From: Pseudomonadales bacterium
GTDB taxonomy: Bacteria > Patescibacteriota > Microgenomatia > UBA1400 > PJMF01
DNA length: 64,000 nt
Direction of reading: 5' to 3'
Assembly (NCBI GenBank): GCA_020632265.1
Contig: JACKFW010000001.1
Coordinates: 465,892 to 529,891, forward strand
Part shown: piece after piece, positions 8,115 through 62,293 of the stretch
Layout: each line of letters starts with the position of its first letter
Numbering within the stretch: the stretch's first letter is position 1
Program-made: the position numbers and the translations under genes
Notes under the pieces: generated by a model
Databases searched by the model: none
What the model was told of the DNA's origin: nothing
Seen by the model: the letters and a program-made list of their open reading frames with translations, nothing else

Positions 8115-8158
8115 ATTTTTTTGTGTCTTCTATATTTTATTAATCTAGATCAAAAATG

Positions 8159-8824: not shown

Positions 8825-8910
8825 GGAGGTGTCGCATAGTGGTCAATTGCACACGCCTGGAAAGCGTGATCCTTATGGATTCAAGGGTTCGAATCCCTTC
8901 ACCTCCGCCA
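8825..8910 (+). tRNA. tRNA-Ser (anticodon GGA)
   Basis: Acceptor GGAGGTG/CACCTCC, anticodon stem CACGC/GCGTG, loop CTGGAAA, long variable arm, T-arm AAGGGTTCGAATCCCTT and an encoded CCA. Its last 20 nt recur at 21791-21810. Confidence 0.75.
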
Positions 8911-10362
8911 TTTTTCTAAATCATGAGAATCATTAAGATTTTCAAGTGGTTTCCACAATTTTGTAAGTCTGGTATTGGTTATTTTTCCATCTTTAAAATC
9001 ACAGTTCCAAAGTACTGATTTTAATAAATCTCTTTTAACTTCATCATCTCCTTCTTCAAAAACTTTAGATAGCTGTACAGCGCTATTTTTTATTTCTTCA
9101 ACAAGTTCCAAAGTTTCTAGAGCCCCTTTGTTATTTTTTTGCTTAAGAAGTACAGAGAGCTGAGCAAGTTCATTTTCAAATTCAATCTTTCTTTCGTTAT
9201 AACGATCAAAAGAAATTTGTTCATCAATATAAATATTCTCAAGTCTTGTTAATTTTCTTTTAAGACCTGAAACTTGTTGTTTAATTGTGTCTTTGTTATC
9301 TTTTTTATTAGCATCCTCTTTTAATAAAGATTGTTTGTATAAATCAAATGATTTATTTGCTCTTTCTGGATCTAGCGTAAAACCTCCAAAGAAATCTTGA
9401 AACAAATCTGAAATATGTTTTTTATTCCAATAGGTTGTATGTTGGGAGCACTTTCCTTTTCCATTTGTGCATCTGTAATAAATATATTTTCCTTTAGCAA
9501 TTCCTGCTGTAACTTTACAACCACATTCAGCACAATTTAGAAAATCTCTAAAAACAAAATTAAGTTTCTGTTTTTTAGGTCTGCTTTTATTTTCAAATCT
9601 AGCTTGAACCTTATCGAACAAATCTTTAGAAATTAAAGGCTTGTGCTTGCCTTCATGGAGTTGTCCTTTTCTGTTAATCACTCCGTAATATTCAGGATTT
9701 ATTAGCTGTCTATATAAACTAGAAGTGCCAACTTTTTTACCACTTCTTGATCTATAACCTTCACTTGCCAATTTTTTAGCTAGAGTTTTAACCGAATGTT
9801 CACCACCAGAAAATAATTCAAACGCTCTTTTAATGAAAGGAGCTCTGATAGGATCTGGTTCAATTCCTTTTCCCGGCTGAATGTTTATGTAGCCGATTGG
9901 AACATAACTTGGATATTCTCCTTTTAATAGTTTGCTTTCATTCCCAGCTTTAACTTTTACTGATAGATCTCTTGAAAATTGAGATGCTAAAACAAAATCA
10001 AATCCCATGTAAAATAGTGAAGAAGCATCTTGAAAAACAGTGGTTAAAGTTCTAACTTCTTTGAGTAGTCCTGTTTCAATCATCTTAATTACGAAACCAG
10101 CATCTATTAAATTTCTAGCTAGTCTGTCAGTGTGTACCACCAAAATCGAATCTGCTTCTCCATTCTTGATTCTGTCCAACATGTTATAAAACAAAGGTCT
10201 ATTTTGATCTGTTTTAGCACTTTTTGATTCTTTGATAATATCAACAACTTCCAACTTCAAACTACTAGCTAAATCTAATAAAAGGCGTTGTTGAGTACCA
10301 AGAGATTGAGTTTGTCTAGAATCTTCTTCAGATGATTTTCTACAATAAATAAAATGTTTCAT
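8899..10362 (-). CDS. large serine recombinase (resolvase/invertase N-domain plus recombinase and zinc-ribbon domains)
   Basis: 487 aa with the N-terminal YCRKSSEEDSRQ catalytic-serine motif and ...VHTDRLARN. The C-terminal region has a Cys cluster (CAECGCK...YYRC). The 3' end overlaps the tRNA-Ser(GGA) 3' end by 12 bp. Confidence 0.8.
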   Translation of the reverse strand: MKHFIYCRKSSEEDSRQTQSLGTQQRLLLDLASSLKLEVVDIIKESKSAKTDQNRPLFYNMLDRIKNGEADSILVVHTDRLARNLIDAGFVIKMIETGLLKEVRTLTTVFQDASSLFYMGFDFVLASQFSRDLSVKVKAGNESKLLKGEYPSYVPIGYINIQPGKGIEPDPIRAPFIKRAFELFSGGEHSVKTLAKKLASEGYRSRSGKKVGTSSLYRQLINPEYYGVINRKGQLHEGKHKPLISKDLFDKVQARFENKSRPKKQKLNFVFRDFLNCAECGCKVTAGIAKGKYIYYRCTNGKGKCSQHTTYWNKKHISDLFQDFFGGFTLDPERANKSFDLYKQSLLKEDANKKDNKDTIKQQVSGLKRKLTRLENIYIDEQISFDRYNERKIEFENELAQLSVLLKQKNNKGALETLELVEEIKNSAVQLSKVFEEGDDEVKRDLLKSVLWNCDFKDGKITNTRLTKLWKPLENLNDSHDLEKWRR

Positions 10363-11237
10363 GATGAATCCTTAAGGGCAGGGAGATTTAAAGTATTATA
10401 CACACTATATTCGCAATCCCCATTTCTTTTTGTTTCAAATATATTTTTATAACTTGGTATTATTTCATTTAATCTTGTGAGAATCTTTTCTGCCTCATAT
10501 CCATATAAAGTAACAGGTTGTTTTAAATTTCTAGAACCAGAATATGCTCTTTTTCCATTGAGTCTCGGATCATCAACGCTTTTTGATAAGTACTTAGCCA
10601 TATATCCAGCTATCCTATCAAGAGTTTTTCTATTAATTTTAACAAAACCAAGCTTCCACCATTTTTCAAGTAATTTTTTAGGTATATAAGGCAAATTACA
10701 AGCTAAATGAAAATGAATAGCTCCTCGATTGTTTTTATCTTGAAATTCAATAACCCAAACATATTTTAAATTAGGATATTTATATTTTAGCAACCTTAAG
10801 AAGTTTTTTAAGTATGCTGTACACTCATCAACATTTGTAATATCTAATCCGCAATCATCTTTTAAGGTAAGAACTATTGATTTAAAAAATCCCTGAAAAT
10901 TAGTATTGATAATTCTTTTAACTTTGAAAGATCGTCTAGTTCCAGTTCTTTTTGAATATTCATCACTTCTATCTTTTTGAGATCCAAAATTATTTAAGTT
11001 TGTATGCGGGAGATTTACAACAATTGGATCTTGATAGATATACTTTTCAACAAAATCTCCTGAAACAATAATTTTTAAATTCGTAGCAAAGGGTTTTGGA
11101 ACATGAATATTGGCTGATATTCTTCGTTCTAGTTTGACGGTATTATCAAGTCTAGTAGTGTGCTCGGGCACACTAGGAAGAGCAAGACCTAAAGGTCTAG
11201 CACCAAGAATATCTTGAACATCATTTTTTAACAACAA
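10359..11237 (-). CDS. rolling-circle replication initiator, Rep_1 (pC194/pUB110-like) HUH family
   Basis: 292 aa with motif II GAIHFHLACNL (HUH) and motif III GYMAKYLSKSVDD (AKYxxK..D, active-site Tyr). Its start overlaps the recombinase start by 4 nt, suggesting an operon. Confidence 0.6.
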   Translation of the reverse strand: MLLKNDVQDILGARPLGLALPSVPEHTTRLDNTVKLERRISANIHVPKPFATNLKIIVSGDFVEKYIYQDPIVVNLPHTNLNNFGSQKDRSDEYSKRTGTRRSFKVKRIINTNFQGFFKSIVLTLKDDCGLDITNVDECTAYLKNFLRLLKYKYPNLKYVWVIEFQDKNNRGAIHFHLACNLPYIPKKLLEKWWKLGFVKINRKTLDRIAGYMAKYLSKSVDDPRLNGKRAYSGSRNLKQPVTLYGYEAEKILTRLNEIIPSYKNIFETKRNGDCEYSVYNTLNLPALKDSS

Positions 11238-11430: not shown

Positions 11431-11540
11431 GTTTCATATTAGTCCATGAACGCAGACTCTTAATAATGAATATACAACATTTTTTTATAAACAAAAGAAT
11501 CAAAATGATTCAATCTGGGTTTTATTGAACAATAAATCCA

Positions 11541-11660: not shown

Positions 11661-11758
11661 CGCTCGAAGTGATATAGAGGTAACTAACAAAAGTGAAATT
11701 TCAGAATTATGATAAAATTAAAACTGATATTTGAAATTATATAAAGAAATAAATGTGA

Positions 11759-12532: not shown

Positions 12533-12579
12533 TTTTATTGAAAATATAATGATTTATCAATATAAAGATTGCTTAAAAA

Positions 12580-12608
12580 AGTTCCAATTTCATCCCACAC
12601 TCTCCGCA
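12580..12608 (+). repeat. tRNA-Ser-3'-end-like cassette boundary repeat (variant B: AGTTCCAATTTCATCCCACnCTCTCCGCA)
   Basis: agttccaatttcatcccacactctccgca. It is nearly identical over 17 nt to the 3' end of tRNA-Ser(TGA), atccctcgctctccgca. Confidence 0.7.
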
Positions 12609-13202: not shown

Positions 13203-13236
13203 AGTGAGATTGTATATTTTATGGCTAAATTAAAAA

Positions 13237-21600: not shown

Positions 21601-21632
21601 AAAGTTCCAATTTCATCCCACGCTCCCCCGCA
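21601..21632 (+). repeat. variant-B core repeat
   Basis: aaagttccaatttcatcccacgctcccccgca. Confidence 0.7.
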
Positions 21633-21790
21633 TATACAAAAAAGTCTCCTGAAAGGCGATGTTTTTGTATAATTGGGGTGTGGTTTGGTATGCAAAAAGA
21701 TTGTTCGCACCAGTAAGAAGTGAGCATCTGCGAACTTCCTGCTTAGTGCATGTGAGCTTCCTTAAGTAGATGCAAATTGCAGCGAATCGT

Positions 21791-21810
21791 GAATCCCTTC
21801 ACCTCCGCCA
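21791..21810 (+). repeat. terminal direct repeat (attR-like): exact 20-bp copy of the tRNA-Ser(GGA) 3' end
   Basis: gaatcccttcacctccgcca is identical to 8891-8910. It defines an island of about 12.9 kb downstream of the tRNA. Confidence 0.75.
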
Positions 21811-25603: not shown

Positions 25604-25755
25604 AAAGTTCCAACTTCATTCCACGCTCCCCGCATTTGACAGAAAGTGAGCTTTAGCTCAGTTTGTGTCAAATATGAATGGGATGAGAAGTTTATGCCCC
25701 ATCAAGCGAAATATAAAAATATAAATTTGAGCATGACCGGGCTTAAATCCCCCTC
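25604..25755 (+). repeat. module M copy 3 (diverged): variant-B core, hairpin, conserved about 60 bp, then a degenerate tRNA-Ser(CGA) 3'-end 17-mer
   Basis: aaagttccaacttcattccacgctccccgca...tatgaatgggatgagaagtttatgccccatcaagcgaa...aaatttgagcatgaccgggcttaaatccccctccctc aligns with the reverse complement of 54351-54515 and of 57741-57877. Confidence 0.6.
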
Positions 25756-25915
25756 CCTCTTAACAATCTGAAGATTTAATAGACTCAAACTTGCAACAGA
25801 AGAATACGAGGTCTCATTAAAGGATTAATCCTCAAAATAATCACTCTGCAAATCAAACATCATTTGGATTAATGGAGGTATTCAAGCCCCTTATAGGACT
25901 AAGTCAAGCCAAGTT

Positions 25916-47541: not shown

Positions 47542-50500
47542 TTACACCTGATAATTTTTTGCTGCCATCTCTAACAGTCTATCTGAAATAAACCTAAATG
47601 GCGTTGCCTTTGAGTCGGTGTGTGTTTGCATATAAACCTTGCGTTCTTCTGGCATTAATACCATTCTACGAATTGCCGCCAGTGCTTGATTTTCAGTCAT
47701 TTCACCAAATCTAACCTGGTTCCATAGGCCTGGTCTGACATGTTCAATGAAAGCTTCAACTAGTGGAGTTGCATTTCTGCCCCGCTCTGAATAAAAACTA
47801 ATTGCTTCAATTATGTGAGTCAACTCTTCTATATAGGTGTCAACAAACTCTTTAAATGGTTTTTCATCTAAAGATTGAGATAGTTTAATTCGTAAACTGC
47901 TTTTATCTGCAAAGCTTCTATCTCCGGTGATGATATCAATTGGTACAATTATGCCAGTCGCACGCTGGAACAAGTCTATTCTCCTGTATAACTCATAAAG
48001 AGATTCGTTTGCTGCCACAGGTGTTTCATCAAATTTCATCATGGTCTCTACCATCTCGCGGGAAAGAGGCGTACCGCTAGAAGCCACGTTACGAAAGTCA
48101 TCTATAATTGATTGGCGTATTTCATTCAAGCTTCTGCCATCAGGTAGTTTAATGTTCATTAGTAAATGCTCTAAGTTGTATACCGATTCATCAGTGTACT
48201 TACCCATCTCAATTGCATCTGCAGTTTGTGTGCTCCCTGCTAATAGTTGATCAAATAACTCAGCTTCTGTTTTTATGTCATAATCAGGTCTGTAATATTG
48301 ATTATATAGTGCATCATTTGCTAGCATCGGAACATACCAGGATCCTTTTCTATATCGTTGGGCTAATTCGCGGTACACAGTAGCTGCCACAGTTTTCTTT
48401 AACCTATCAATTTCTTGTTTTGAAACTGCTAATCCAGCCCTAACTCTGGTGGGAGGTAGCCAGGTAGGAACATCCACCTGCAAAACCAAACCCTGATTTT
48501 CCAAGAGTTGAACAATTGTCGGATGAATATAGTCAGTTAATCCAAAATTTCGATCTTCTACTTCACCTAGTGACATATTTCTTCTTCGAACATCTGCCCA
48601 TGGATAGTCTTGTCTTTGAGCTAGAGCAACTCTTAGAGTGCCAGATCTTTGCTTCCCAGTAGCTGTTTCACCAGAGTAGCTAATCTCACCAATGACTTCT
48701 TGCTGTGGAGGCTCTAAATTTTCGGATTGATATGATATAGGCATCAGCTCTGAAATTGGACGAGCATAATGTTCAACAGCATTGCGAACAATCTTTTCTT
48801 GCCATTCTGGGGGAAGATCTTGAGTCAATTTTACTCTGACAGTGCTTCCTGGATACTTGTCCGAGGGATGTTGCTCATCAGCCAATATCACAATATCAGT
48901 TACCATGTCATTTTCTCTTACAATACCAAGGCGAGTGATTGATTCCACTCCATTTTTTACTGCAACTACATCAATTTCATCCGCAACCAAAGCCACAGTT
49001 CCAAATCCCCAACCAATGCCCCCTTCAACAAGTGGGTTTGCTGCTTTCTCAAGATCTCTAGTATTGAATTGGAGTAATTTGTTTTTGATTACATCTATGT
49101 CCATACCAATCCCTTGATCTGAAATTTCAAAAACTCCATGCGTAATGTTGTCACCTTCCATTTCTCGATACATTCTCATATCAATCTGTCCGCCTTCAAC
49201 CTCAAAACCGTTCATAATGACTGCGTCACGAGCATTTTGTAGCAGTTCACGTACAAAAGTGTCCCATCGCACCGATTGTGAGTGAACAGCTTTCATAACT
49301 GACTCGGTATCTGCTTCAACCACTCTTGTAGTATCAAATGGATCAGCACCTCGTTTTTTACGAGCAATCATTTGACCTACAGTAACTCCACTCAGCCGAC
49401 CTTGTGATAATTCTTGTTTTGCTTCTTCTGCAAGTACTCGAACATCACTCGATAAAAAGTCAATCATTTCATCTGTTTGTCGGCTTAAGCTTCCAGGATT
49501 ATCAACTATGTCTATATACATCTGATTGAATAATGTTCTAAGTGAAGTTTCACTCATCATCATTTGAACATTTTTAAGCAAAGATTCTTGATCACTAGCT
49601 CCATGTTTAATGACTGTCGCAACTATTTTGGCAAAAGCATACTCTTCAAAAGGATCTTCTGGTACTGTAAACTGGCCTCTCTTTGCTAGTTTTGATATTT
49701 GCTCTGCCAATTCTGGAGTTAGAACTTCCTCATACAAAAGCAGTGGAATAATGCGGATTGTGCATAAGCTATCTGCAAGCTCAGGATTTTCTCTGGATAT
49801 TTTTGTCAATTGATAAAGCATTTGTATTTCATCAAACTCTCCACCAAGTACGTTTCGCAGATCGCGAACCCTGTCTGCAACCATAGCAACCGACTGAGCA
49901 TTTTCGTGAATAGGCAATAGGCCAGGTAGATATGCCCCTTGAGGTAAGAAGAAGTCTCTTGCAAATGTACAACCAGCTTGTTCAAGTTGAGAAACTGCTT
50001 GTTGTACATGTTGAGGCGGGGATTGTAGATTCTCGTTCAATGATGGATTTTTCACTAAAGTTGTAATGGCGAGGTTTGCCATTTCTGGATTCTTGAGTCT
50101 GTATTTCATCAGGTTTGCCATAACATTTTGAAATAAAGTTTGAACTTGTGGATCAGAAAAATCCCAGCTTGGGTTTTTGCAGCAAGCGATAAAGGTTTCT
50201 CCAACCAATGTGGTAGCCCAATTATTTTGTTGTTCATGAGAAGCTAAGCGTTCTTCGACTTTGTCAATAACAAATGATTGGGAAATTTCGACGATCTGCT
50301 CCAATATTTGACTGTAATTTCTCACTAAATTCACACTTACAGGAATGTTAGGATGAGAGAAAAAATCCTTAATAGCAATTGGAATTGAAGCTGAAAGCAC
50401 TATAGACTTTGATTGTTGATGTTTTTTTGTGTAGTCAAGACCTTCAAAAATTGCATTGGTCAATTCGATTAGTACTTCTTCATCAACATTTGTACTTTCT

Positions 50501-53500
50501 GGGTTTGAAAAGATTGATAGTAATTTATATGTAGTATTTCCTGGATATCCAACTTGAATTTCAGGGTTATTTCTATCTTTAATCTGTTGAATCAAATTAA
50601 CCATAGTCTCACTGTCAAAATGTGCTAGATTAGGAGAATTGAATATGTTTACTCCATTGTCTCTGAAGAAGAACCTCACAAAATTTTTAGAATAACTAGC
50701 AAGCCAGTAATTAAGGGATTCATTTCCCAGGACGAGTGCGCCAGAATTAATTAAAAACTGTTCATAGACTAAACCTAAATGATGTATGTAACCTGATTCC
50801 AAAAGTTGTGGAGACAGTCTAATTAGTTCATCATGTATTTGTGAATAAATGTTTGCCCAATCATCCCCAATGTTTGGGTTGGTTGCCAAACCTTCGAATG
50901 ATGCAACTAGGCAAGTTGGAAATTGTTGGTCAATAATACCAGATTTATGAAGATAATCCCAATAACTCTTAATCCTTTCTTTAGCCCAATTAGTAACATC
51001 GGGATTATCAAGTTGAAATTTTTGACTAGCAGCATTAAATATATTAATATATTTTAAGTGCCTGAAAATATCTATTTTCCAAAGATTTTTACCAGACTTT
51101 TTTATTCTATGGTGTTGGGCAGTTTCAAAATCAAGGAGTAGCTGAGAGTTTTTTAAACACTGTTCAACTTTTTTTCTTACCCAATCATCTTCAAAATTAA
51201 GTTTTTTTGTTAGAAAATATTCGGATAATTCAGCATAGCCATATGACATTAGGTCATCTGACTCCTCTTTAATTAATCTAATTAATTCTGTTCTTTGAGT
51301 CTCAAAAACATTATCGATCAATCCCCGCACCCACGGATCAGAAAGATCTAACCATTCCTTCTTAACCAGTTTCGTTCCCAATCTAATTAACCGTTCTCCT
51401 TTAAATGTTTCAAAGGCATGGGTTATGTGCTCTCGAATCCAAGGGTTATCTACTGTGTCTATGCCTCGAAGCAATTCCTGATAGCCTTCAAATAGACCTT
51501 GCTGAGTATTATCAGGTAGCTTTTGACCATCCCTCATCAATGTTTTTTCTAACCTAATGTATCTGTCTAACATCTCTTGTCCAAATTTAGTCTCCCAGAA
51601 AACTGAAGATATGTTATCCGCACCGAATTTTTCTTCACGTTTATCGTACATCTGAAAATAAAGATCCATATATTTGACAACTAAATCTCGACACCATTGA
51701 TGATCGAAGTCCCAAGGTAAGCCAAATATCAGCATTGGTATAGATTGAGATAACAACTGGCGCTTGATTTCATCCAATTCGTTTTTTGATAGATGACGAC
51801 CGCTTCGATCAGTACCTGTATCTAAGGCTAGTAAGTCTTGTCGAATATTTTGTTGAATGCTGTGTAGCAATTCTCTTAGAGTAGTTCGTTCCATTTCCGA
51901 TCTATCATGGTGATCTCTACGTCCATTTTCTCTCATCATCACATGCATTTCTATCACGTCCATATATCTTGAACCGCTCATAAACTCATCCATGGTTTGG
52001 TCCCAATCAAAACTTTTTTCAATATCTCGAGAGGATTCGGCAGATTCTTCAATCTGTTGAGATGCAGACCTCTGCATTGGTACAAATTCTCCCGCTTTGA
52101 TTGAGGCAAAACCCTTAAATGAAGCTGGTTGAGGATAGCCAACGTCAATGCCATTTATCAATGCATTAAGGATGTCTATGCCTTCACTAGTTTGAATAAG
52201 TCTGTCATATACAGCACGATCTAAAAATAGGACTCCTTCATGTTCAAAATGCAGCGGATGGTATTGGTCGTCATTCTTAAATTTGGCTAGATAAAGCTGA
52301 TAAACTCTGGAACCACGCCAACGATCTGACATTTCACCGATTGATCTTGGAGAAAAATCAAACAAGGCTTCGTCAACATGAACAAAACCCTCTGCATCTA
52401 GATGAGAAAAGTCATCAGTGTTTGGAACAAACTGCGCTCCTTGTTTTTTTTCAAGTATCTCTAAATCACCTTTAATTAGTGGCCTTATTCTCCGTGATAC
52501 CATCGATACAAACATTTTGTAATCTTCTGACTTAGTGTTTCCAATATCTTTAGCAATGGCTCTAAGGACAGCTGTAAGCAGATTAGCATACCTTATTCTG
52601 TCAATTGGTTCTTCAATAGCTTTGATTTGGTCAATGATAACTTCTAGATTATATTCATATTCCTTATCTTTAAGTATTCGAGTCCAACTCTCGTCCAATG
52701 TAACAGTGTCCAGCGAAATGACTGCTTTATCTGCGGGAAAGCTACCCCTTATTCTGCCTTTAATTTGATATTGCTCTACTGTAATTCCACTAACTTGAAT
52801 ACTGAATGTTGGTTCAACAGAATTTGAAGTTGTTTCTCCTACAAGGATTTGAGCATTACTTTTCCTATCTCGACGATTAAATCTTTTTGTACCACGTCCA
52901 GGAACTAAAAATTTTTCGTATAAAACTTCTGTAGCTGTTTTTTTAGGTTGAGTAAGACCTGAGCCTCGGTCTAATACAATATAACCCTCGTCAGAGAGAT
53001 AGATATAAATATTTCCTCTTGATTTTCGTGATTCGTTATTATTAATACCTCGCAACTTATCTGCTTCTTTATTTATTCGCATTTTTCTGCCATCTGCAGT
53101 GGCGCACCAAATGTTAAAGCCTTGTGAATCAGCAAAACGCCATTTGACTTCAGCAAGCAATTTATCAGCATTCATTGGAGCATCGACTCTAATAACAGTT
53201 CCATGATTCAAGTTTCCTTCTAGCCCAAAGGGTTCGAGGACCAATTTTGCCTGTCTTTGCAATTCTTGGTCAGGATTTTGATCAGGAGCAAATAAGAACT
53301 CACCGCCACTTGCGCGAACATATCCACCAGTTGTCTCTCCAGCTTGATTTTTGCTCAGTACACTAAAGCGAGCATCTCTACGTTTAGTGAGCCACTGCCA
53401 TGTTGAAACAATTCCTTTCCCAAATCGTCCAGTTGTATCTTCTAGGTGAGCATCGCGGGCATTTGTCACAGCTTCAACTACTGTTTGTTCTAGGATAGCC

Positions 53501-54117
53501 TGTTGAAAAACATGACTAGCTTCATCAAAGGGTGTGTATTCCAGTCGTCGACGTTTCAAGATATCACCATCAACTCGACCTTCTCTTTGCCATTTATCAT
53601 ATTCCGCAGCATCTCCATGCCCGCCCTCAACATAACCAATTATTTGTTTAATAGGGTAATAGGTTTGGCTCTTTGGAAGTTGACGAGCTGTTTCAACAAG
53701 TTTTCTTCGTTGAGCGAAGGGTAGCACTCCCACCAATTCTTTTAGAGTTCTTGTATCATTCTTATCTGTGGATTTAATAAGTTTTTCAATGATTCTTAAA
53801 CTTTTTAGTAAAAATGATCTTACAAATGCCTCACCAAGTACGTCGATTATCTCCTCACCTGTTGGTTGTTGATCTTTAGTGGCTTCAGTCCTTTGGCGAT
53901 AAAGAGAGAAAAGTTGCTGATTTTCAGGGTCCAGTAAATCATGGCCAACAATTAAAACGAGATCATCATTACTAGTAATGTTTTCTATGAGTCTCTGTTT
54001 ATCAAACAAAAAGCCATGATAATAATCGACAAGTCTAGGAAGCGCATCTTCTAGTTTTGTGTTTCGCTCGGCTGACCTTGTGGATGGTAAGTATTCATTA
54101 TTTGGATTATATGACAC
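47542..54117 (-). CDS. giant (2191 aa) cytoplasmic protein with GHKL/Hsp90-like ATPase domain
   Basis: An uninterrupted 6.6-kb ORF. Residues about 1600-1800 (nt about 48700-49300) carry Bergerat-fold boxes: N-box RELLQNARDAV, G1 DQGIGMD and G2 GGIGWGFGTVAL. There is no signal peptide or TM segment. Confidence 0.7.
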   Translation of the reverse strand: MSYNPNNEYLPSTRSAERNTKLEDALPRLVDYYHGFLFDKQRLIENITSNDDLVLIVGHDLLDPENQQLFSLYRQRTEATKDQQPTGEEIIDVLGEAFVRSFLLKSLRIIEKLIKSTDKNDTRTLKELVGVLPFAQRRKLVETARQLPKSQTYYPIKQIIGYVEGGHGDAAEYDKWQREGRVDGDILKRRRLEYTPFDEASHVFQQAILEQTVVEAVTNARDAHLEDTTGRFGKGIVSTWQWLTKRRDARFSVLSKNQAGETTGGYVRASGGEFLFAPDQNPDQELQRQAKLVLEPFGLEGNLNHGTVIRVDAPMNADKLLAEVKWRFADSQGFNIWCATADGRKMRINKEADKLRGINNNESRKSRGNIYIYLSDEGYIVLDRGSGLTQPKKTATEVLYEKFLVPGRGTKRFNRRDRKSNAQILVGETTSNSVEPTFSIQVSGITVEQYQIKGRIRGSFPADKAVISLDTVTLDESWTRILKDKEYEYNLEVIIDQIKAIEEPIDRIRYANLLTAVLRAIAKDIGNTKSEDYKMFVSMVSRRIRPLIKGDLEILEKKQGAQFVPNTDDFSHLDAEGFVHVDEALFDFSPRSIGEMSDRWRGSRVYQLYLAKFKNDDQYHPLHFEHEGVLFLDRAVYDRLIQTSEGIDILNALINGIDVGYPQPASFKGFASIKAGEFVPMQRSASQQIEESAESSRDIEKSFDWDQTMDEFMSGSRYMDVIEMHVMMRENGRRDHHDRSEMERTTLRELLHSIQQNIRQDLLALDTGTDRSGRHLSKNELDEIKRQLLSQSIPMLIFGLPWDFDHQWCRDLVVKYMDLYFQMYDKREEKFGADNISSVFWETKFGQEMLDRYIRLEKTLMRDGQKLPDNTQQGLFEGYQELLRGIDTVDNPWIREHITHAFETFKGERLIRLGTKLVKKEWLDLSDPWVRGLIDNVFETQRTELIRLIKEESDDLMSYGYAELSEYFLTKKLNFEDDWVRKKVEQCLKNSQLLLDFETAQHHRIKKSGKNLWKIDIFRHLKYINIFNAASQKFQLDNPDVTNWAKERIKSYWDYLHKSGIIDQQFPTCLVASFEGLATNPNIGDDWANIYSQIHDELIRLSPQLLESGYIHHLGLVYEQFLINSGALVLGNESLNYWLASYSKNFVRFFFRDNGVNIFNSPNLAHFDSETMVNLIQQIKDRNNPEIQVGYPGNTTYKLLSIFSNPESTNVDEEVLIELTNAIFEGLDYTKKHQQSKSIVLSASIPIAIKDFFSHPNIPVSVNLVRNYSQILEQIVEISQSFVIDKVEERLASHEQQNNWATTLVGETFIACCKNPSWDFSDPQVQTLFQNVMANLMKYRLKNPEMANLAITTLVKNPSLNENLQSPPQHVQQAVSQLEQAGCTFARDFFLPQGAYLPGLLPIHENAQSVAMVADRVRDLRNVLGGEFDEIQMLYQLTKISRENPELADSLCTIRIIPLLLYEEVLTPELAEQISKLAKRGQFTVPEDPFEEYAFAKIVATVIKHGASDQESLLKNVQMMMSETSLRTLFNQMYIDIVDNPGSLSRQTDEMIDFLSSDVRVLAEEAKQELSQGRLSGVTVGQMIARKKRGADPFDTTRVVEADTESVMKAVHSQSVRWDTFVRELLQNARDAVIMNGFEVEGGQIDMRMYREMEGDNITHGVFEISDQGIGMDIDVIKNKLLQFNTRDLEKAANPLVEGGIGWGFGTVALVADEIDVVAVKNGVESITRLGIVRENDMVTDIVILADEQHPSDKYPGSTVRVKLTQDLPPEWQEKIVRNAVEHYARPISELMPISYQSENLEPPQQEVIGEISYSGETATGKQRSGTLRVALAQRQDYPWADVRRRNMSLGEVEDRNFGLTDYIHPTIVQLLENQGLVLQVDVPTWLPPTRVRAGLAVSKQEIDRLKKTVAATVYRELAQRYRKGSWYVPMLANDALYNQYYRPDYDIKTEAELFDQLLAGSTQTADAIEMGKYTDESVYNLEHLLMNIKLPDGRSLNEIRQSIIDDFRNVASSGTPLSREMVETMMKFDETPVAANESLYELYRRIDLFQRATGIIVPIDIITGDRSFADKSSLRIKLSQSLDEKPFKEFVDTYIEELTHIIEAISFYSERGRNATPLVEAFIEHVRPGLWNQVRFGEMTENQALAAIRRMVLMPEERKVYMQTHTDSKATPFRFISDRLLEMAAKNYQV

Positions 54118-54350: not shown

Positions 54351-54515
54351 ATTTCCTCTCTTAGAGGACATAACACTGCGTAGGGAGGGGGATTTACCCT
54401 CGTCATGCTCAAATTTATATCTGCTTTGCGAATTCGCTTGATCGGGCATAAACTTTCTCATCCCCACTCATATCTGTAAAAAAATAGGCTTACAGCCTAC
54501 TTTTTTACAGATGCG
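54351..54515 (-). repeat. module M copy 2: tRNA-Ser(CGA) 3'-end 17-mer, conserved about 118 bp with hairpin, then a variant-B core in place of the tRNA
   Basis: 54351-54486 is nearly identical to 57741-57875. It is then followed (reverse complement) by aaagttccaatttcatcccatgctccccgca where the genuine tRNA end sits in copy 1. The listed ORF 54258..54467 is probably spurious. Confidence 0.7.
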
Positions 54516-54658
54516 GGGAGCATGGGATGAAATTGGAACTTTTTTCTCTCAATAAACATAAGCCTATATATTTTATATTGAGTTTTTAGAAACAGCGAAA
54601 TCTTTCAGATTCATAACTAATATAAAATAACAAATTTCAATTAAAAATAGTATTAATA

Positions 54659-55450
54659 TTAAATGGGGAAAGAACAAAAAGATAGATCAGATTCAATTGC
54701 CATAAAATTTATGAAGTCCTTTTTCAAATTATCAATAGAAATACCCAATTTGTTACTTAATAGTTCTATACTTTTCTCTGGCATAAGACTATTAAGTTTC
54801 AATTTATTAGTTACATCATCCATTGACAAACCTTTATGCAAACCAAAATATGCTACTCCCAAAACTAAGTTTTGGTAGTCAGGATGGACATTAATTTTGA
54901 AAGTATTTTCACCAGCTTGAGAAACACCTTCTGAATCTAATCCTAAAACAGTTCTAACCTCTTTCTCATTTATTATAGAATTTTGATTTCCCATTTTGTT
55001 ACAAAGAAGCTTAATTGCTCTAGCAGTTCTTCCATTCCCATTTTTGTATTTATGCAACAAAATTTCCATTAAATAAAATCCATTTGCAAATCTATCCCAA
55101 TCTGAATCTTCAAAAACCTTATCAACTAAAGATCTAACTATTTCATTATAAATAACTTGATCTTTTGATGGTTTTTTCCAAACAGTAAGACCAACCTTAA
55201 ATGCAATAATAGTATCTTTACTAGAATGAATATCTGTTTTTTTATCTATATTTAAAAGTTTTCTATTAAGCAAATCATCAAAACCGCTAATAATCCCCAC
55301 TAACCCTTGAATATCTCCCTCACTTAAGAAAGCTTTTAATATTTTTAAAGTGAATTGTAATGTCTCTGTCATGCGAAGAACAGATTCTTCACGAAACTCT
55401 TTTGAGTCTTGATCATATCTACTACTTATTTTTTCATCTTCATTTATCAT
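54659..55450 (-). CDS. Fic/Doc-family protein (cassette cargo)
   Basis: 263 aa with HKYKNGNGRTARA matching the Fic core HxFx(D/E)GNGRxxR, with N at the acidic position. It is preceded directly by a full junction unit. Confidence 0.6.
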   Translation of the reverse strand: MINEDEKISSRYDQDSKEFREESVLRMTETLQFTLKILKAFLSEGDIQGLVGIISGFDDLLNRKLLNIDKKTDIHSSKDTIIAFKVGLTVWKKPSKDQVIYNEIVRSLVDKVFEDSDWDRFANGFYLMEILLHKYKNGNGRTARAIKLLCNKMGNQNSIINEKEVRTVLGLDSEGVSQAGENTFKINVHPDYQNLVLGVAYFGLHKGLSMDDVTNKLKLNSLMPEKSIELLSNKLGISIDNLKKDFINFMAIESDLSFCSFPI

Positions 55451-55610
55451 AAAAATTTTTAGGTTCTAAATTCCCTACACCTATCCCAATTTTATCACAT
55501 TTCTAGCCTGGAGTTCCATCATGCGGAGGTGAAGGGATTCACGATTCGCTCGTTTCACTCACTCACATGCACTAGGCAGGCTCGCTTTGTTCGCTTGCCG
55601 TCGCGAACCA
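55451..55610 (-). repeat. junction unit whose core is the genuine tRNA-Ser(GGA) 3' end plus att flank (inverted relative to the tRNA-Ser(GGA) locus)
   Basis: The reverse complement reads ...tagtgcatgtgag...gcgaatcgtgaatcccttcacctccgca-tgatggaactccaggctagaaatgtgataaaattgggataggtgtagggaatttagaacctaaaaattttt-ATG(Fic). It is homologous to 21745-21810. Confidence 0.7.
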
Positions 55611-55639
55611 TAAATATTTAATCAACATTCAACCTACAC

Positions 55640-55707
55640 AAACGTACAAAAAAATAGGCTTACAGCCTACTTTTTTACAGACGCGGAGCATACGGGTCTG
55701 GAACCCG
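55640..55707 (-). repeat. partial module M hairpin plus variant-C core repeat (GGTTCCAGACCCnnATGCTCCGC)
   Basis: aaaaataggcttacagcctacttttttacagacgcggagcatacgggtctggaacccg. Confidence 0.6.
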
Positions 55708-56173: not shown

Positions 56174-56275
56174 TCACTGTAGTTAGAATACTAGGATGCG
56201 GAGCATGTGGGTCTGGAACCCGGTTATCACTATAGTTCGAATCCTAGGATGCGGAGCATGTGGGTCTGGAACCCA
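56174..56275 (-). repeat. two tandem variant-C junction repeats
   Basis: gtcactgtagttagaatactaggatgcggagcatgtgggtctggaaccc and tcactatagttcgaatcctaggatgcggagcatgtgggtctggaaccc. The reverse complement core is ggttccagacccacatgctccgca. Confidence 0.7.
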
Positions 56276-56296
56276 GATATCTATGTAGCACTATTC

Positions 56297-56502: not shown

Positions 56503-56560
56503 CGTCACTGTAGTTAGAATCCTAGGATGCGGAGCATGTGGGTCTGGAACCAGTGTGTCG
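56503..56560 (-). repeat. variant-C junction repeat
   Basis: gtcactgtagttagaatcctaggatgcggagcatgtgggtctggaaccagtgtgtcgctata. Confidence 0.7.
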
Positions 56561-57229
56561 CTATAACTGATAACAATTTCCACCCACATCTACATAATTA
56601 CCGTCGTACGGCTTTGCATGAATTACTGAACCCTGCCCATGCATAATTGTTAATTCACTCTGTAGTAGATGTGCTAGCTGCATTGATCCAGATCCATTAG
56701 CTTCATCTTCAGAAATTCCCCAATCAGGAGCAAAAGTTCTGGCTCTAATGATCTTGTTTTTTTTATCTTGCCATGCCCATACTAAGGAATGTTTGTAATC
56801 TTGTATTTGTTTTTGCGTTAGATTTTCAACTTCTTCATAACTCTTAATTTGAATGTGTTGCCAATTAGGAGTAATTGACAATGGACCTCGAATCCAAAAA
56901 AAGTCATTTTGGTATATAGAAACTTTTTCATCAGAACAAATAAGATTTTTGGGTGGATTTTTAGTGTGTTGATATAAAAACCAAGCTGTTCCTAAAATTG
57001 CATGACCAGCAAATTTAACTGGTTTAAGTGGATTGAAAATTTGAACTTTACCTTGATTGATATTATCTATAAATACGGTTTCACTATAGTTTAGTTGTTT
57101 GGCAATTTTTTGACGTTGAGATGGTTCCAACTTTTCTTGCTCATCAATAATAATACCCACAGGATTACCAAAATTGTTGTCTGAGTTAACAAATACACTA
57201 ACAGTAAAAACATTTTGTTTTTCGAGCAT
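56561..57229 (-). CDS. PhzF/DapF-fold isomerase-like protein (cassette)
   Basis: 222 aa with the N-terminal FTVSVFVNSDNNFGNPVGIIID and FAGHAILGTAWFL resembling the PhzF-family signatures. Confidence 0.45.
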   Translation of the reverse strand: MLEKQNVFTVSVFVNSDNNFGNPVGIIIDEQEKLEPSQRQKIAKQLNYSETVFIDNINQGKVQIFNPLKPVKFAGHAILGTAWFLYQHTKNPPKNLICSDEKVSIYQNDFFWIRGPLSITPNWQHIQIKSYEEVENLTQKQIQDYKHSLVWAWQDKKNKIIRARTFAPDWGISEDEANGSGSMQLAHLLQSELTIMHGQGSVIHAKPYDGNYVDVGGNCYQL

Positions 57230-57261: not shown

Positions 57262-57323
57262 ATCACTGTAATTCGAATCCTAGGATGCGGAGCATGTGGG
57301 TCTGGAACCAGTGTGTCGCTATA
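57262..57323 (-). repeat. variant-C junction repeat
   Basis: tcactgtaattcgaatcctaggatgcggagcatgtgggtctggaaccagtgtgtcgctata. Confidence 0.7.
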
Positions 57324-57875: not shown

Positions 57876-57876
57876 G

Positions 57877-57962
57877 CGGAGGGAGGGGGATTCGAACCCC
57901 CGTGAGTAAAATACTCCCAAGCTTTTCGAGAGCTGGCCGTTAAACCACTCCGACATCCCTCC
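57877..57962 (-). tRNA. tRNA-Ser (anticodon CGA)
   Basis: Acceptor GGAGGGA/TCCCTCC, anticodon loop CTCGAAA on a 4-5 bp stem, long variable arm, and T-arm GGGGGTTCGAATCCCCC. Confidence 0.6.
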
Positions 57963-59002: not shown

Positions 59003-59086
59003 GGAGAGCTGGCAGAGTGGTCAATCGCAACGGTCTTGAAAACCGTGACCTTTATGGTCTCGTGGGTTCGAATCCCTCGCTCTCCG
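59003..59086 (+). tRNA. tRNA-Ser (anticodon TGA)
   Basis: Acceptor GGAGAGC/GCTCTCC, anticodon stem ACGGT/ACCGT, loop CTTGAAA, long variable arm, and a T-arm with one T-T mismatch. Confidence 0.6.
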
Positions 59087-59094
59087 CAAATAAC

Positions 59095-59769
59095 ATGACT
59101 ACACATCAACTCACAGAAAAATTAGTTGCAGATATTGAAAAAAAGTCTGATGATCATTCATTGTTTATTGTTGCCATCAGTGGACTAGATGCTTCAGGAA
59201 AATCTCAAATAGCTGAAGTTTTAGCAAGGAAACTTGAAGATAGAAAAAAAAATGTTCTCAGTGTGTCAGGGGATTCATTTCAATTTCCACGTGAGTACAA
59301 GGAGGATTTTCAGGAAAAAGACTGGACCACTCAACACATAAGAAGAACAATCAATTTTGAAAAAATGACCACTGAATTATTCCAGCCTCTGCAAGCTTTG
59401 CCAAATACTTTGCAATTAGATATTGTCAATTATGACACAAAAGAAAAAGTAAAAACTGCTGTCTCATTACAATACCCGCTAATTCTCATTGTTGAGAGTA
59501 TTTATCTCTTTTCTCATAAAATGATGCCATACTTTGATTATAAAATTTTTCTTGATATTTCAATTGCAGAAGCTTTAAAGAGAGCAACTTTACGAAAAAG
59601 AGATTTGGAGCTTTATGGTAGTGCAGATGGGATTCAGCAAAAATATGAAACTAAAAACTTTCCGGGATATCTCGAATTTGATAAGCAGGAGAACCCAAAA
59701 AGCCTTTCAGATGTTGTCATAGATAATAATGATTGGCAAAACCCAGTAATAATTAAAGGTGAGTTATAA
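59095..59769 (+). CDS. uridine kinase/phosphoribulokinase-family P-loop kinase
   Basis: The listed ORF 59017..59769 begins inside the tRNA. The likely start is ATG 59095 (MTTHQLTEK...) with Walker A ISGLDASGKSQ. Confidence 0.55.
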   Translation: MTTHQLTEKLVADIEKKSDDHSLFIVAISGLDASGKSQIAEVLARKLEDRKKNVLSVSGDSFQFPREYKEDFQEKDWTTQHIRRTINFEKMTTELFQPLQALPNTLQLDIVNYDTKEKVKTAVSLQYPLILIVESIYLFSHKMMPYFDYKIFLDISIAEALKRATLRKRDLELYGSADGIQQKYETKNFPGYLEFDKQENPKSLSDVVIDNNDWQNPVIIKGEL

Positions 59770-59777
59770 CGACGCAC

Positions 59778-59802
59778 GGGTTCCAGAACTGGGTGATCCG
59801 CA
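59778..59802 (+). repeat. variant-C core repeat (plus orientation)
   Basis: gggttccagaactgggtgatccgca. The preceding ttataacgacgcacgggttccaga is identical to the reverse complement of 55687-55710. Confidence 0.6.
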
Positions 59803-59821
59803 ACAATAAACAAATTTACAT

Positions 59822-60310
59822 TTATTGTGATATTTTATTTAAAACTCCCTTTTCCAAACGATCAATAAGCAACCAAATAACCATAGATACTATCATCGCA
59901 ATCCAAAGCATAAAAAACAAGAAAGTAAATTCTATACCTTGAGTAATTGTAATAATGAAAAATCCTACAATATTTAATACAAATATGAATCCAATAACTA
60001 ACTTTTTAGAAACTTTAATATTAATATTAAAAACTCGTTCAGCGATAAATAAAAATATTGCATAAATAAAGTATAATTTATAAAAAATATTCATTACATC
60101 ATCTTTAGTGTGCAGACCATCAGGAACATGTAATTGCTTAAAGAATAAAGTATCTGCACCAAGTATATTTAATGACATAAGAATAATGACAAAATTAGTA
60201 ATAACTATGAAAGTTTCTGGAGCTTTTTTTAAAAAAAATAAAAAATATGAAAAAATATTTAATAACAACTTTATGCCAGAATTTAGTGAATCTAATTTTA
60301 TTGAAACCAT
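59822..60310 (-). CDS. hypothetical polytopic membrane protein
   Basis: 162 aa with 4 TM helices. Confidence 0.4.
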   Translation of the reverse strand: MVSIKLDSLNSGIKLLLNIFSYFLFFLKKAPETFIVITNFVIILMSLNILGADTLFFKQLHVPDGLHTKDDVMNIFYKLYFIYAIFLFIAERVFNINIKVSKKLVIGFIFVLNIVGFFIITITQGIEFTFLFFMLWIAMIVSMVIWLLIDRLEKGVLNKISQ

Positions 60311-60393
60311 ATAAAATCAGTATAACATTGCTTTAGACTAACTCTAAGTAAGTTTTGACTCAGATATTGAAAACAACTTTTTCCCAATTGATT

Positions 60394-60426
60394 AAAGTTC
60401 TAATTTCATCCCATGCTCCCTAGCAC
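60394..60426 (+). repeat. variant-B core repeat
   Basis: aaagttctaatttcatcccatgctccctagca. Confidence 0.6.
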
Positions 60427-60452
60427 ATACATCTTTATGCTACAATTTTTAT

Positions 60453-61091
60453 ATGAAAACAGCACGCATCTACGTTTTTGGTGATAGTTTGACTTACGGA
60501 GCGTGGGATAGCCAAGGTGGTTGGTGCGATAGAATCAAGCGCAAACTCCACGAGCTAAAACTTACTCCAAATTCTGATCATAAATTTCAAATGTTTAATT
60601 TGGGTATTGGTGGAGAAAACTCCAGATCTTTATCTAAAAGATTTGAAAGCGAACTTACCAATAGATGCCGTGAAGATTGGCCTGCCGTGATAATAATAGC
60701 TACTGGAGCAAATAATTCCCTTTTCACCAAATCGGACAAAAATCCTGTTGTATCTATTGAAGAATTTCAACAAGACTTAGAAAAAATCATCAATACTGCA
60801 AAAAAATATACAAATAAAATCTTATTTGTAGGAATAGCACCTGTTGAGAATGACCTTCAACCATTTAAAAACTCACTACATAGCAATGAGCTACTAAAAA
60901 AATACGATGATGTAGTAACTTTTGTCACTAACAATTACTACATATCGAAGATTAATGTCTGGGAAAAGTTCAAGTCTGCAACTGAGCATTTGTATTCAAT
61001 AGACAGTGTTCATCCAAATGACAATGGTCATAAAATAATTGAACAACTTGTTTGGGCAGAATTATCAAAAATTCTTCTAGAAAAGGGTTGA
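60453..61091 (+). CDS. SGNH/GDSL-family hydrolase
   Basis: 212 aa with block I IYVFGDSLTYGAWD (catalytic Ser) and a C-terminal DSVHPN (DxxH). Confidence 0.7.
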   Translation: MKTARIYVFGDSLTYGAWDSQGGWCDRIKRKLHELKLTPNSDHKFQMFNLGIGGENSRSLSKRFESELTNRCREDWPAVIIIATGANNSLFTKSDKNPVVSIEEFQQDLEKIINTAKKYTNKILFVGIAPVENDLQPFKNSLHSNELLKKYDDVVTFVTNNYYISKINVWEKFKSATEHLYSIDSVHPNDNGHKIIEQLVWAELSKILLEKG

Positions 61092-61141
61092 TTTTTCTTC
61101 AGGAAATACTCCAATTTTATCCCCCACTCTTTGTAAATGAA

Positions 61142-61954
61142 TTAGTAAGAAAATGTTTCTAAAATTTTCAATGCTGTATTAACATCTGTTGAATTAACAA
61201 ATTTATCTGACATCATATAAACACTTTCCATCCCATTTATTTTTGAAACAAATTCACCAGTTATCATTGTAGTTCCTTGAGTATTTAAACCATCAAACCC
61301 ATAGCAAATGTTGTTCCAACAACGCTGAGCAGGAATAACGTTGAAACGAATGTTTCCAGTAGAACTAAATTCTTTGTTTGGCTGAAGTCCATTCAACACT
61401 ACATATAGTGGCTTATTATAAAAGTTTAATGTCGCTAATGTTTGATTTTCAATGTTATTTTTTTGACATTCTTCATCACATCCACCTCCTAAACCATCAA
61501 TATTAGTCCTTATTCTTAATAAAAAATTATTAGGAGACAATAATTGAATATCACCCATGCTCCACTCAGAATTAGAATTTTCAACGTTATTTTCTTCTAA
61601 CTTCCAGTCGGGCGGATAATTAAAGCTAAGTTTTTCATTAAATATTTTGTATGATTTCCACTCATCATTTGAAGTAATATCTTGCATATTTTTTAACTCA
61701 GATTCAATATTTTGATTATCTATAAATGAATTAGAACTGTCATTAATTTTGTCAAAATCTAAAACTGAATTATGCAAATCAGATAATTTTAATTCTAAAT
61801 TTGATATTTTTTGTCTTATTAAAATATTTTGAAAAAACAAATAGGAGATTCCAAATATTAGCAAGAAAAAAACTACGATTGTTAAATATAATCGTATATT
61901 ATTTTTCTTTGAATCACTAACTTTGCTGGAATTATCTTCAAAACTGTCGCTCAT
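61142..61954 (-). CDS. hypothetical secreted/membrane-anchored protein
   Basis: 270 aa with an N-terminal TM/signal segment and 4 Cys in the C-terminal half. Confidence 0.4.
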   Translation of the reverse strand: MSDSFEDNSSKVSDSKKNNIRLYLTIVVFFLLIFGISYLFFQNILIRQKISNLELKLSDLHNSVLDFDKINDSSNSFIDNQNIESELKNMQDITSNDEWKSYKIFNEKLSFNYPPDWKLEENNVENSNSEWSMGDIQLLSPNNFLLRIRTNIDGLGGGCDEECQKNNIENQTLATLNFYNKPLYVVLNGLQPNKEFSSTGNIRFNVIPAQRCWNNICYGFDGLNTQGTTMITGEFVSKINGMESVYMMSDKFVNSTDVNTALKILETFSY

Positions 61955-62012
61955 AAAAACTTGTTGATTTTCATTTATTTTATAATTTTACATGATTTAT
62001 TTGACAAAACGC

Positions 62013-62040
62013 AATTCCAATTTGATCCCACACTCTCTTC
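62013..62040 (+). repeat. degenerate variant-B core repeat
   Basis: aattccaatttgatcccacactctcttc. Confidence 0.45.
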
Positions 62041-62293
62041 AAGAACAAAAAGTATTTTTGACACGTCAAATACTACTAAATTATCAATTTTTTGTCCAAA
62101 ATTGACTAACTTTTCAAAATAATAGAGCCATATTTGCTAAGAAAGAATTGGAAAAAATGCTAGAAGATCAGAAAACTCAAGAAAGCTAATAATTCTCAGT
62201 TCTCTTTCAGTTTCATAAGTTATATTACCAATACTGTTAACAGTATTAATTATCATTAGATGTAATTCATCTGAGACACAAAGGTATAAAATT

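Follow-up and report, generated by a model that had tools for sequence, protein, structure and literature searches.

The 64,000-nt stretch of DNA analysed here (hereafter, the window) has a G+C content of ~32% and contains five tRNA genes, four of which are tRNA-Ser genes: tRNA-Ser(GCT) at 8158-8243 (−), tRNA-Ser(GGA) at 8825..8910 (+), tRNA-Ser(CGA) at 57876..57962 (−) and tRNA-Ser(TGA) at 59003-59087 (+). Three of the four, all but the GCT gene, are followed downstream by arrays of short sites that resemble the 3′ end of tRNA-Ser and end in YCCGC. This study concerns the segment at 55451-55682, in the array headed by tRNA-Ser(CGA), where a block matching the 3′ end of tRNA-Ser(GGA) is joined to a repeated module and, through it, to the start codon of a distant Fic-like gene. 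The segment is confirmed to be a genuine recombination junction in a cassette array downstream of a serine tRNA.

Layout of the array and the junction at 55.5 kb

The anatomy of the CGA array is established. Read on the minus strand, it starts with the tRNA gene and an H-unit (a terminator hairpin and a CGA-partial arm, as the incomplete copy of the tRNA-Ser(CGA) 3′ end is called here) that ends at 57746. Units closing in C-left sites follow, at 57292, 56534, 56256, 56203 and 55688; the last of these sites, GGGTTCCAGACCCGTATGCTCCGC (55683..55705), is a partial tRNA-like 3′ end with tRNA spacing. Next comes the second copy of a D-unit (55682-55523), a gene-less unit of ~165 nt in which a terminator hairpin and a spacer precede a second copy of the 18 nt that end tRNA-Ser(GGA). 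Module P and the Fic-like gene (55450-54659) come after it, and then the A-left site GTTCCAATTTCATCCCATGCTCCCCGC (54539-54513), which forms the tail of the Fic cassette and carries the motif also found at the far end of the recombinase-bearing element described below. A second H-unit and chromosomal genes close the array. Three site types are defined by their left arms, GTTCCAAYTTCATCCCAYGCTCYCCGC in A-left, GGTTCTAACTTGGTACACACACCTCCGC in B-left and GGGTTCCAGACCCACATGCTCCGC in C-left, and the block that ends the D-unit is called D-left. Sites are oriented like the tRNA that heads their array, whatever strand is used by the intervening genes.

Comparison of repeats within the window showed that the D-left block, AGCGAATCGTGAATCCCTTCACCTCCGC, is a 28-nt exact match between 21781-21808 (+) and 55523-55550 (−); it ends in the YCCGC core, and is invariant in both window copies and in the related contig L007 (L labels denote the contigs compared in this study). 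A second block, CCTGCYTAGTGCATGTGAG, is found at 21738-21756 (+) and 55562-55580 (−) with one Y difference between copies; in its conserved form, CCTGCCTAGTGCATGTGAG, a 13-nt core (TAGTGCATGTGAG) is invariant in three D-units. The gap between the two blocks is 24 nt in the 21.7-kb copy versus 11 nt in the 55.5-kb copy. A preliminary description of this DNA had proposed that about 50 bp are common to both loci, and pairwise alignment recovered them as the 28-nt exact match plus the 19-nt block. The final 18 nt of D-left, GAATCCCTTCACCTCCGC, are those of the 3′ end of tRNA-Ser(GGA) (8891-8908) and occur three times in the window versus 0 expected from 100 shuffles. The proposed presence of a GGA-type flank within the tRNA-Ser(CGA) array is borne out by the array layout. 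The segment had also been regarded as inverted: the two copies do lie on opposite strands, but this is uninformative because tRNA-Ser(GGA) and tRNA-Ser(CGA) are opposed and the sites of each array follow their own tRNA.

Immediately after CCGC the two copies part: the 21.8-kb copy reads ...CCGCCA and the 55.5-kb copy ...CCGCAT. From this point a 72-nt module (55451-55522, −) spans the distance between the core and the ATG at 55450. The flanks of the shared blocks are unlike those of the other locus on both sides in an alignment of the two units, and an independent Logan contig, L001, found in 2 samples, is identical (100%) to window positions 54482-55677 and crosses the junction. Because of these two observations, the junction is not an assembly chimera; the 28-nt repeat is, besides, probably shorter than the k-mers usually employed in assembly.

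The 72-nt module is head module P, which carries TGATAAAAT at 55489-55497 and matches four modules of the first array at 82-85%, with further copies in L005 and L008. An nhmmer search with the site plus module P recovered five instances in the window, at 13217, 14194, 16466 and 18588 (+) and at 55568-55454 (−), with E=1.6e-31. The canonical promoter module that had been proposed here is thus a real repeated head module, but its promoter character is suggested by the extended −10 element TGATAAAAT only, and a sigma-70 consensus scan did not call module P as a promoter; judged by its sequence, the module is probably promoter-like. Its right end (GGATAGGTGTAGGGA..TAGAACCTA, window 55457-55490 (−), and likewise in other P modules) is an imperfect inverted copy of a tRNA-Ser-like 3′ end, and B-left together with the right end of P makes a long imperfect palindrome. 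Folding of six att+P modules as single-stranded DNA, on both strands, gave dG values of −7 to −12.5 kcal/mol and z scores of +0.45 to −2.5. An attC-like hairpin was considered and rejected, as the folds are weak and not common to A-left and B-left versions, and A-left alone lacks a hairpin.

The gene joined at its start codon to module P (54659..55450, −) encodes 263 aa. Its motif HKYKNGNGRTAR matches the Fic/Doc motif HxFx(D/E)GNGRxxR with Y for F and N for D/E, and residues H133, N139, G140, R141 and R144 are invariant in the alignment of the 22 homologues that make up its family. The protein showed no Pfam family at E<=0.01, and phmmer found no Fic chain in the PDB at E<=10. An AlphaFold2 model with a mean confidence (pLDDT) of 85 had nearly all its top Foldseek matches in the PDB among Fic/Doc proteins, but the matches were weak (the best, 3cuc_B, had E=0.056, probability 0.97 and a TM score of 0.38). 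The gene had been named a Fic gene; its position at the junction stands, but with no Pfam or PDB sequence match, "distant Fic-like" is a fair description of the predicted product. Homologues on L018-L020 are found in ordinary chromosomal neighbourhoods that lack such sites.

Core junctions, proposed half-sites and the large serine recombinase

The positions of the junctions are equally well established: the switch from left arm to right module falls at YCCGC in every case. Module P is found after A-left (13259, 16498), after B-left (14237, 18618 and L005:4396), after D-left (55528) and after a true tRNA-Ser(GCT) (L005:1596). The H flank follows tRNA-Ser(CGA), C-left (55688) and A-left (54518), and a third module, R, follows D-left in L007 and both C-left and B-left in L005. 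Sequences upstream of D-left are homologous across genomes, and those downstream differ right after the core. On the tRNA, YCCGC takes in the end of the acceptor stem together with the discriminator base and the first C. The observed joins bracket the crossover no more finely than this shared YCCGC; the symmetry of a reconstructed attP (A-left + CATTTTTCTAAATCATGAGAATC...) would place it at CC. A mini-unit R of 45 nt (CAAGAATGAACGTAGTGAATTCCTGGCGGATGGCCTACGAGCTACCGC) that ends in CCGC was seen at L005:4951-5000 and 5985-6035 and at L007 (−) 1829-1785, and in one case it is followed by a P-like module.

A spacing rule separates the sites into two classes. The interval that starts at GTTC and closes with CCGC measures 27 nt in every A-left (n = 22) and B-left (n = 9) site and in the diverged variants of L015 and L021, and 22 nt in 11 tRNA-Ser genes and 6 C-left sites. 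In serine integrases, the motif contacted by the zinc-ribbon domain (ZD) lies 5 bp nearer the centre in attB than in attP (PMC3783163, Rutherford et al. 2013). By analogy, GTTC may be the ZD motif, tRNA-Ser and C-left would be B-type left half-sites, and A-left and B-left would be P-type; D-left is probably a B-type left half-site.

A candidate enzyme is encoded next to tRNA-Ser(GGA). It is a large serine recombinase (LSR) of 487 aa (8899..10362, −) whose gene overlaps the 3′ end of the tRNA gene by 12 nt at its own 3′ end, with Resolvase (PF00239, 1.4e-14), Recombinase (PF07508, 7.6e-15) and Zn_ribbon_recom (PF13408, 7.4e-08) domains, all above cut-offs. A gene for a rolling-circle-type replication protein (Rep; REP_ORF2-G2P, with a weak RepSA Pfam match) adjoins it at 10359..11237 (−), and the window Rep-LSR element (8909-12607) has an A-left site at its far end (12581..12607, +). 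Pfam scans covered ~60 of the 93 window open reading frames (ORFs) of at least 70 aa; leaving an IS3 fragment aside, the LSR was the sole site-specific recombinase among them, and no tyrosine recombinase (Phage_integrase-type or IntI) was found in this set.

The association of the LSR with tRNA-Ser is well established. Homologues are counted in hundreds, and the Rep-LSR pair is kept in every context fetched, down to 36% identity. The 3′ end of the LSR gene abuts the 3′ end of a tRNA-Ser gene on the opposite strand in six independent lineages: GGA in the window, ACT in L008-L011, GCT in L012, CGA in L013/L014, GCT in L015/L016, and GCT in L022 (36% identity, Moranbacteria). The tRNA/LSR junction, ...CTCCGCCA|TTTTTCTAAAT..., is near-identical in the closest lineages (the window and L008). 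At the far end of Rep-LSR elements, A-left is followed by a terminator-type flank (L008:6046, L012:5770, L015:1392), and an association between A-left and LSR is present in every locus examined. Because element far ends carry A-left, this site appears to be the left half of the element attP, remaining as attR. The LSR end of L021 (47% identity) adjoins an A-left-like site instead of a tRNA, an arrangement that would be expected if a later unit had inserted between the tRNA and an older element. All the related loci come from lineages of the Candidate Phyla Radiation (CPR), namely Pacebacteria, Gottesmanbacteria and Moranbacteria; given this and the ~32% G+C of the window, its assignment to a Pseudomonadales bacterium is probably wrong.

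Two observations concern annotation of these loci. Gene callers run the LSR ORFs antisense through the tRNA in L008, L012, L013 and L015 and thereby produce spurious C-termini such as ...WRRERDSNPRY, the true C-terminus being approximately ...KLWKPLENL..EKW. Also, ARAGORN predicts complete tRNA-Ser genes with the unusual anticodon ACT (A34) at L008:11453-11540 (−) and L015:6080-6169 (+); that of L008 stands in the middle of an array and directly abuts an LSR gene.

Origin of the units and competing explanations

Where the D-unit belongs became clear from L007, a contig found in a metagenome scan with the D-left block. L007 and L005 come from the same organism, Candidatus Pacebacteria bacterium CG_4_9_14_0_2_um_filter_40_15. 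In L007, a NUDIX gene and tRNA-Ser(GGA) are directly followed by a D-unit that closes with the same 28-nt block; the window and the syntenic L008 have their D-unit after the last A-left of the GGA array. Because of this order and this position, the D-unit is regarded as the conserved downstream unit of tRNA-Ser(GGA), and the 12.7-kb array of the window is an insertion between the two. Copy 1 (21632..21808, +), which includes the blocks at 21738-21756 and 21781-21808, lies in the native kind of position, distal to the GGA array. Copy 2 (55523..55682, −) is homologous over its full length to the unit downstream of tRNA-Ser(GGA), and a four-way alignment showed homology along the entire unit, with the two blocks invariant in both window copies and L007. 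Native units of comparable build, each with a second partial tRNA end, accompany tRNA-Ser(CGA) in the window and tRNA-Ser(GCT) in L015. A structured RNA or tRNA-like gene in the D-unit was considered and rejected: Rfam, at gathering thresholds, returned only the five tRNAs, and folds of both window D-units had z scores of −0.8 and −1.1. A short ORF was likewise discarded, since it is present in one copy and its frame is not kept in the others.

The H-unit offers the reciprocal case. Besides the native flank of tRNA-Ser(CGA), a duplicate (hairpin plus partial CGA 3′ end) lies at the distal end of the CGA array (54378..54512, −; 95% identity over 152 nt to the native flank), and a diverged H-unit of CGA type lies at the distal end of the GGA array (25634..25762, +). 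Alignment of the three copies gave 84% mean column identity, and the copy in the GGA array is markedly diverged. Because a GGA-type D-unit is found in the CGA array and a CGA-type H-unit in the GGA array, units appear to have been exchanged between tRNA-Ser loci. In addition, the GCT array of L008 contains a gene that shares 74% identity with orf140 of the CGA array.

On these grounds, our interpretation, to which we assign a probability of roughly 0.62, is that 55451-55682 is an att junction of recombinant origin, set in arrays that are built by LSRs and whose units pass from one tRNA-Ser locus to another. Small Rep-LSR elements would carry the LSRs that build the arrays, for which any tRNA-Ser would provide, with its 3′ end, the left half of attB, and an array of cassettes would thus have accreted at the 3′ end of tRNA-Ser(CGA). 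Core recombination between sites, probably catalysed by the LSR, would insert, excise and reshuffle units in fixed polarity, and the D-unit would have been joined at its YCCGC core to a cassette made of head P, the distant Fic-like gene and an A-left tail. Because recombination of this kind would preserve polarity and reshuffle units, these units, captured native flanks included, could move to another tRNA-Ser locus. As for the probable order of events, D-unit copy 2 most likely arrived within an imported or old composite unit, and not as a recent copy of the GGA locus of the same genome.

A bolder version, which we put forward only tentatively, would see here a serine-recombinase analogue of the integron in CPR bacteria. 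The 3′ ends of tRNA-Ser genes would act as attI-like capture sites of attB type; mobile single-gene cassettes would each have a promoter head and a 27-nt tail of attP type (A-left or B-left); and a Rep-associated LSR would shuffle them in trans, typing sites by one half-site, so that hybrid sites would be reusable.

Several observations weigh against these interpretations. For the Fic cassette, neither an excised circle nor an empty site nor a presence/absence polymorphism was recovered. Recognition of D-left by the LSR is made less certain by its lack of GTTC at either spacing; the right half-sites are poorly conserved; and cassettes with B-left and P were never seen beside an LSR of their own. 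The D-left copy of L008 has decayed, which weakens the case for strict selection on the conserved blocks. The hairpin and the CCGCG junction at the head of D-unit 2 (terminator-like hairpin, 55645..55679, −) include 39 nt that recur unchanged in the flank immediately after tRNA-Ser(CGA); one precise site-specific event does not explain this identity, and homologous recombination or gene conversion must also have acted. Lastly, attL, attR and attP are not partners for one another in the reactions of canonical serine integrases, and repeated insertion at tRNA|head and A-left|P-type junctions would require relaxed rules.

The alternative that best survives, although we deem it unlikely, is that the arrays are passive scars, that is, debris of successive whole elements (Rep-LSR or other) that lost their recombinase and replication genes. 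Cassettes would then be immobile, and the D-left/P join would have arisen by deletion or homologous recombination. Tandem integration, decayed remnants and scattered partial tRNAs are the known pattern of tycheposon-type islands (see below); degenerate sites occur in the third array (59-62 kb), an IS3 fragment lies within array 1, and the 39-nt identity just mentioned indicates homologous exchange. Nevertheless, a 29-nt A-left site recurs almost unchanged at least 10 times on one strand of L017, all within 9 kb, with about one gene per interval and genes on either strand, and independent decay of 4-6-kb elements is unlikely to have left so many copies around mostly single genes. A homologue 54% identical to the Fic-like gene of the window is one of the L017 cassettes. 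Likewise, in five of the seven P-headed units known from the window and L005, a single gene or a pair of genes is all that separates head P from a B-left tail, and the switches fall exactly at the core, not at random within modules. The pattern of L017 and of the P-headed units looks closer to an integron-style array than to decayed complete elements.

Exchange between the two tRNA-Ser loci, as proposed in the preliminary description, is supported by the D-unit of L007 and by the reciprocal H-unit, but a recent move of a site half from the window's own tRNA-Ser(GGA) locus (21.7 kb) into the CGA array is improbable. The 47 identical nt in two blocks, and the occurrence of both loci in one 64-kb window, are what such a transfer would leave. 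However, D-unit copy 2 is only 61% identical to the window's own copy, with a 13-nt indel, versus 64-65% to the copies of L007 and L008; TTCGCGACGG links it to L007 and L008 but is not shared by the copy at 21.7 kb; and the P module next to it is 91% identical to the L005/L008 copies versus 82-85% to those of the window. The low identity of the unit, together with a P module closer to other genomes, indicates that copy 2 is not a recent internal duplication.

A chromosomal inversion between the opposed arrays, swapping their distal parts, is distinctly improbable. Recombination between inverted sites keeps polarity and would yield the reciprocal D-unit/H-unit pattern. Furthermore, CoA_binding and CAP/NUDIX/Maf genes that are adjacent in L008:18699-21315 are found in the window at 6724-7107 and 27782-30409, flanking a tRNA-GCT/NUDIX/tRNA-GGA block, and this change of gene order between window and L008 suggests an inversion or rearrangement with end points in opposed arrays. 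Yet each array keeps its own native units (D-unit 1 at 21.6 kb, H-units at 57.8 and 54.4 kb), and the foreign copies are diverged, the D-unit to 61% identity and the H-unit markedly, so they are not the two halves of one recent exchange.

Very improbable is a mechanism of integron or tyrosine-recombinase type, which would rely either on attC-like hairpins or on att sites in tRNA genes, served by a tyrosine integrase from another part of the genome. The inverted tRNA-Ser-like repeat at the right end of P, with which B-left can fold into a long hairpin, could be read in its favour, and so could D-left, C-left and CGA-partial, which are plain direct repeats of partial tRNAs such as tyrosine integrases leave; an identity of 18-21 nt between tRNA and D-left is, moreover, atypical for serine integrases. 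These points are countered by the absence of tyrosine recombinases among the scanned ORFs, by single-stranded folds that are weak, not conserved across module types and lacking in A-left, and by the association of A-left with LSR in every locus examined. Finally, a chimeric join at a collapsed repeat has a negligible probability: the region is repeat-rich and Logan contigs break at repeats, but L001 crosses the join intact and both flanks of the 28-nt block differ from the other locus.

Relation to known systems and further observations

Several known systems resemble the recombinant arrays proposed here. Tycheposons and related tRNA-targeting elements of Prochlorococcus are tandem elements with partial tRNAs between them, and decayed remnants and cargo form islands; 910 of 937 such elements have a tyrosine recombinase and a minority a large serine recombinase (Hackl et al., bioRxiv 10.1101/2020.12.28.424599). 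Both systems combine a site-specific integrase and a replication gene on small elements that integrate at tRNA genes (LSR and REP_ORF2-G2P in all the loci described here), and both show integration at a tRNA, tRNA-derived repeats and tandem accretion, the LSR abutting tRNA-Ser in six lineages in our case. On the other hand, the arrays described here have an LSR and a rolling-circle-type Rep where tycheposons have, as their hallmark, a deep-branching tyrosine recombinase; they occur in a CPR-type bacterium; they are targeted to a whole tRNA-Ser class (GGA, GCT, CGA, ACT) and not to a single tRNA; many units are single genes with conserved heads and tails; and the repeats between units are not plain partial tRNAs but tRNA-like sites with +5-nt spacing.

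With integrons, the arrays share mostly single-gene units, a short repeated site at the 3′ end of each unit, one polarity, one fixed anchor, and units common to several arrays. They differ in that no IntI was found among the scanned window ORFs and no convincing attC hairpin was seen; in that cassettes have promoter-like heads of their own and do not rely on a Pc promoter; and in that the anchor is a tRNA gene and the candidate enzyme a serine recombinase that would act on double-stranded sites. With serine integrases such as those of A118/LI, phiC31 and Bxb1, the similarities are the Resolvase, Recombinase and zinc ribbon architecture, two half-site classes exactly 5 bp apart in the position of the outer motif, and a recombinase gene at the element end, beside the att site. 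The differences are a target within the tRNA 3′ end, shared identity longer than the usual 2-8 bp, tandem arrays that imply reuse of hybrid sites (which canonical integrases do not carry out), barely conserved right half-sites, and no recombination directionality factor (RDF) identified; canonical systems cross over at a 2-bp stagger, in a one-way attP × attB reaction that an RDF controls.

The actinomycete integrative and conjugative elements (AICEs) of the pSAM2 type likewise target a tRNA gene and are small integrative elements that pair a rolling-circle Rep with a site-specific recombinase; in pSAM2, the integrase is of the tyrosine type and transfer genes are present. Rep, recombinase and tRNA target are thus alike, whereas the enzyme is an LSR in the arrays described here and no transfer genes were seen. 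Since neither an IntI among the scanned window ORFs nor an attC fold was found, the arrays fall outside the definition of an integron, and with an LSR in place of a tyrosine recombinase they do not bear the tycheposon hallmark. By analogy, the closest counterparts are tycheposon-type islands overall, integrons as regards the logic of the array, and serine integrases as regards the enzyme and the geometry of its sites, and we file the system under tRNA-linked integrative islands, as a variant of these.

CPR/Patescibacteria have very small genomes, and their gene acquisition is poorly understood. If LSR-built arrays exchange units as we propose, a large share of the flexible genes of these bacteria would be gained and exchanged at serine tRNA genes. 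A clade of serine integrases with a tRNA-class target, simple sites and attB/attP halves 5 bp apart would provide a testable mechanism of gene flow; natural serine integrases that tolerate hybrid sites and several genomic targets might be a source of enzymes for genome engineering; and searches of metagenomes with the site motifs could reveal pools of flexible genes. No account of tRNA-Ser/LSR cassette arrays was found in the literature on CPR/Patescibacteria, and a paper on horizontal gene transfer in Patescibacteria (PMC12455944) makes no mention of tRNA, recombinase or cassette. It thus appears that no LSR has previously been described for which the 3′ end of any tRNA-Ser serves as the insertion site.

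Relatives of the LSR were also sought in viral data. A search with the LSR protein alone found no viral relative, and one with an LSR alignment recovered relatives at 23-38% identity only, some of which adjoin tRNA-Gly, -Gln or -Thr and not tRNA-Ser. Those at 30-38% identity stand at the ends of IMG/VR viral contigs (L023, 5 kb; L025-L031, 30-60 kb), beside tRNA-Gln, tRNA-Gly or tRNA-Thr in the same tail-to-tail geometry. The wider LSR clade may be generally tRNA-targeting. A viral origin of the site motifs was discarded, as IMG/VR pattern scans for module P, A-left and B-left yielded 0 matches.

Other features of the arrays can be summarized as follows. Each C-left site is trailed by ATCCTAGGATTCGAACTAYAGTGA (window 56174-56287, 56505-56565 and 57263-57323), and the same tail was seen after a CGA-partial-like site in L005:4560-4615. 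Two copies of C-left are just 53 nt apart and delimit a gene-less mini-unit. The third array, downstream of tRNA-Ser(TGA) (59003-62050), is more decayed and contains a degenerate C-like site (59764-59813) and two degenerate A-left sites (~60394-60420 and 62010-62038). Directly after the D-left of the GGA array lie fragments of an IS3-family transposase (rve, HTH_21; 22203-22561, −), and just past the end of that array is a gene with bacterial TSP3 repeats (25916-26995, −) that includes 69-nt tandem repeats at 25965-26459. The distal end of the CGA array is bordered by an ORF of 2191 aa (47542-54117, −) with a weak HATPase_c match only.

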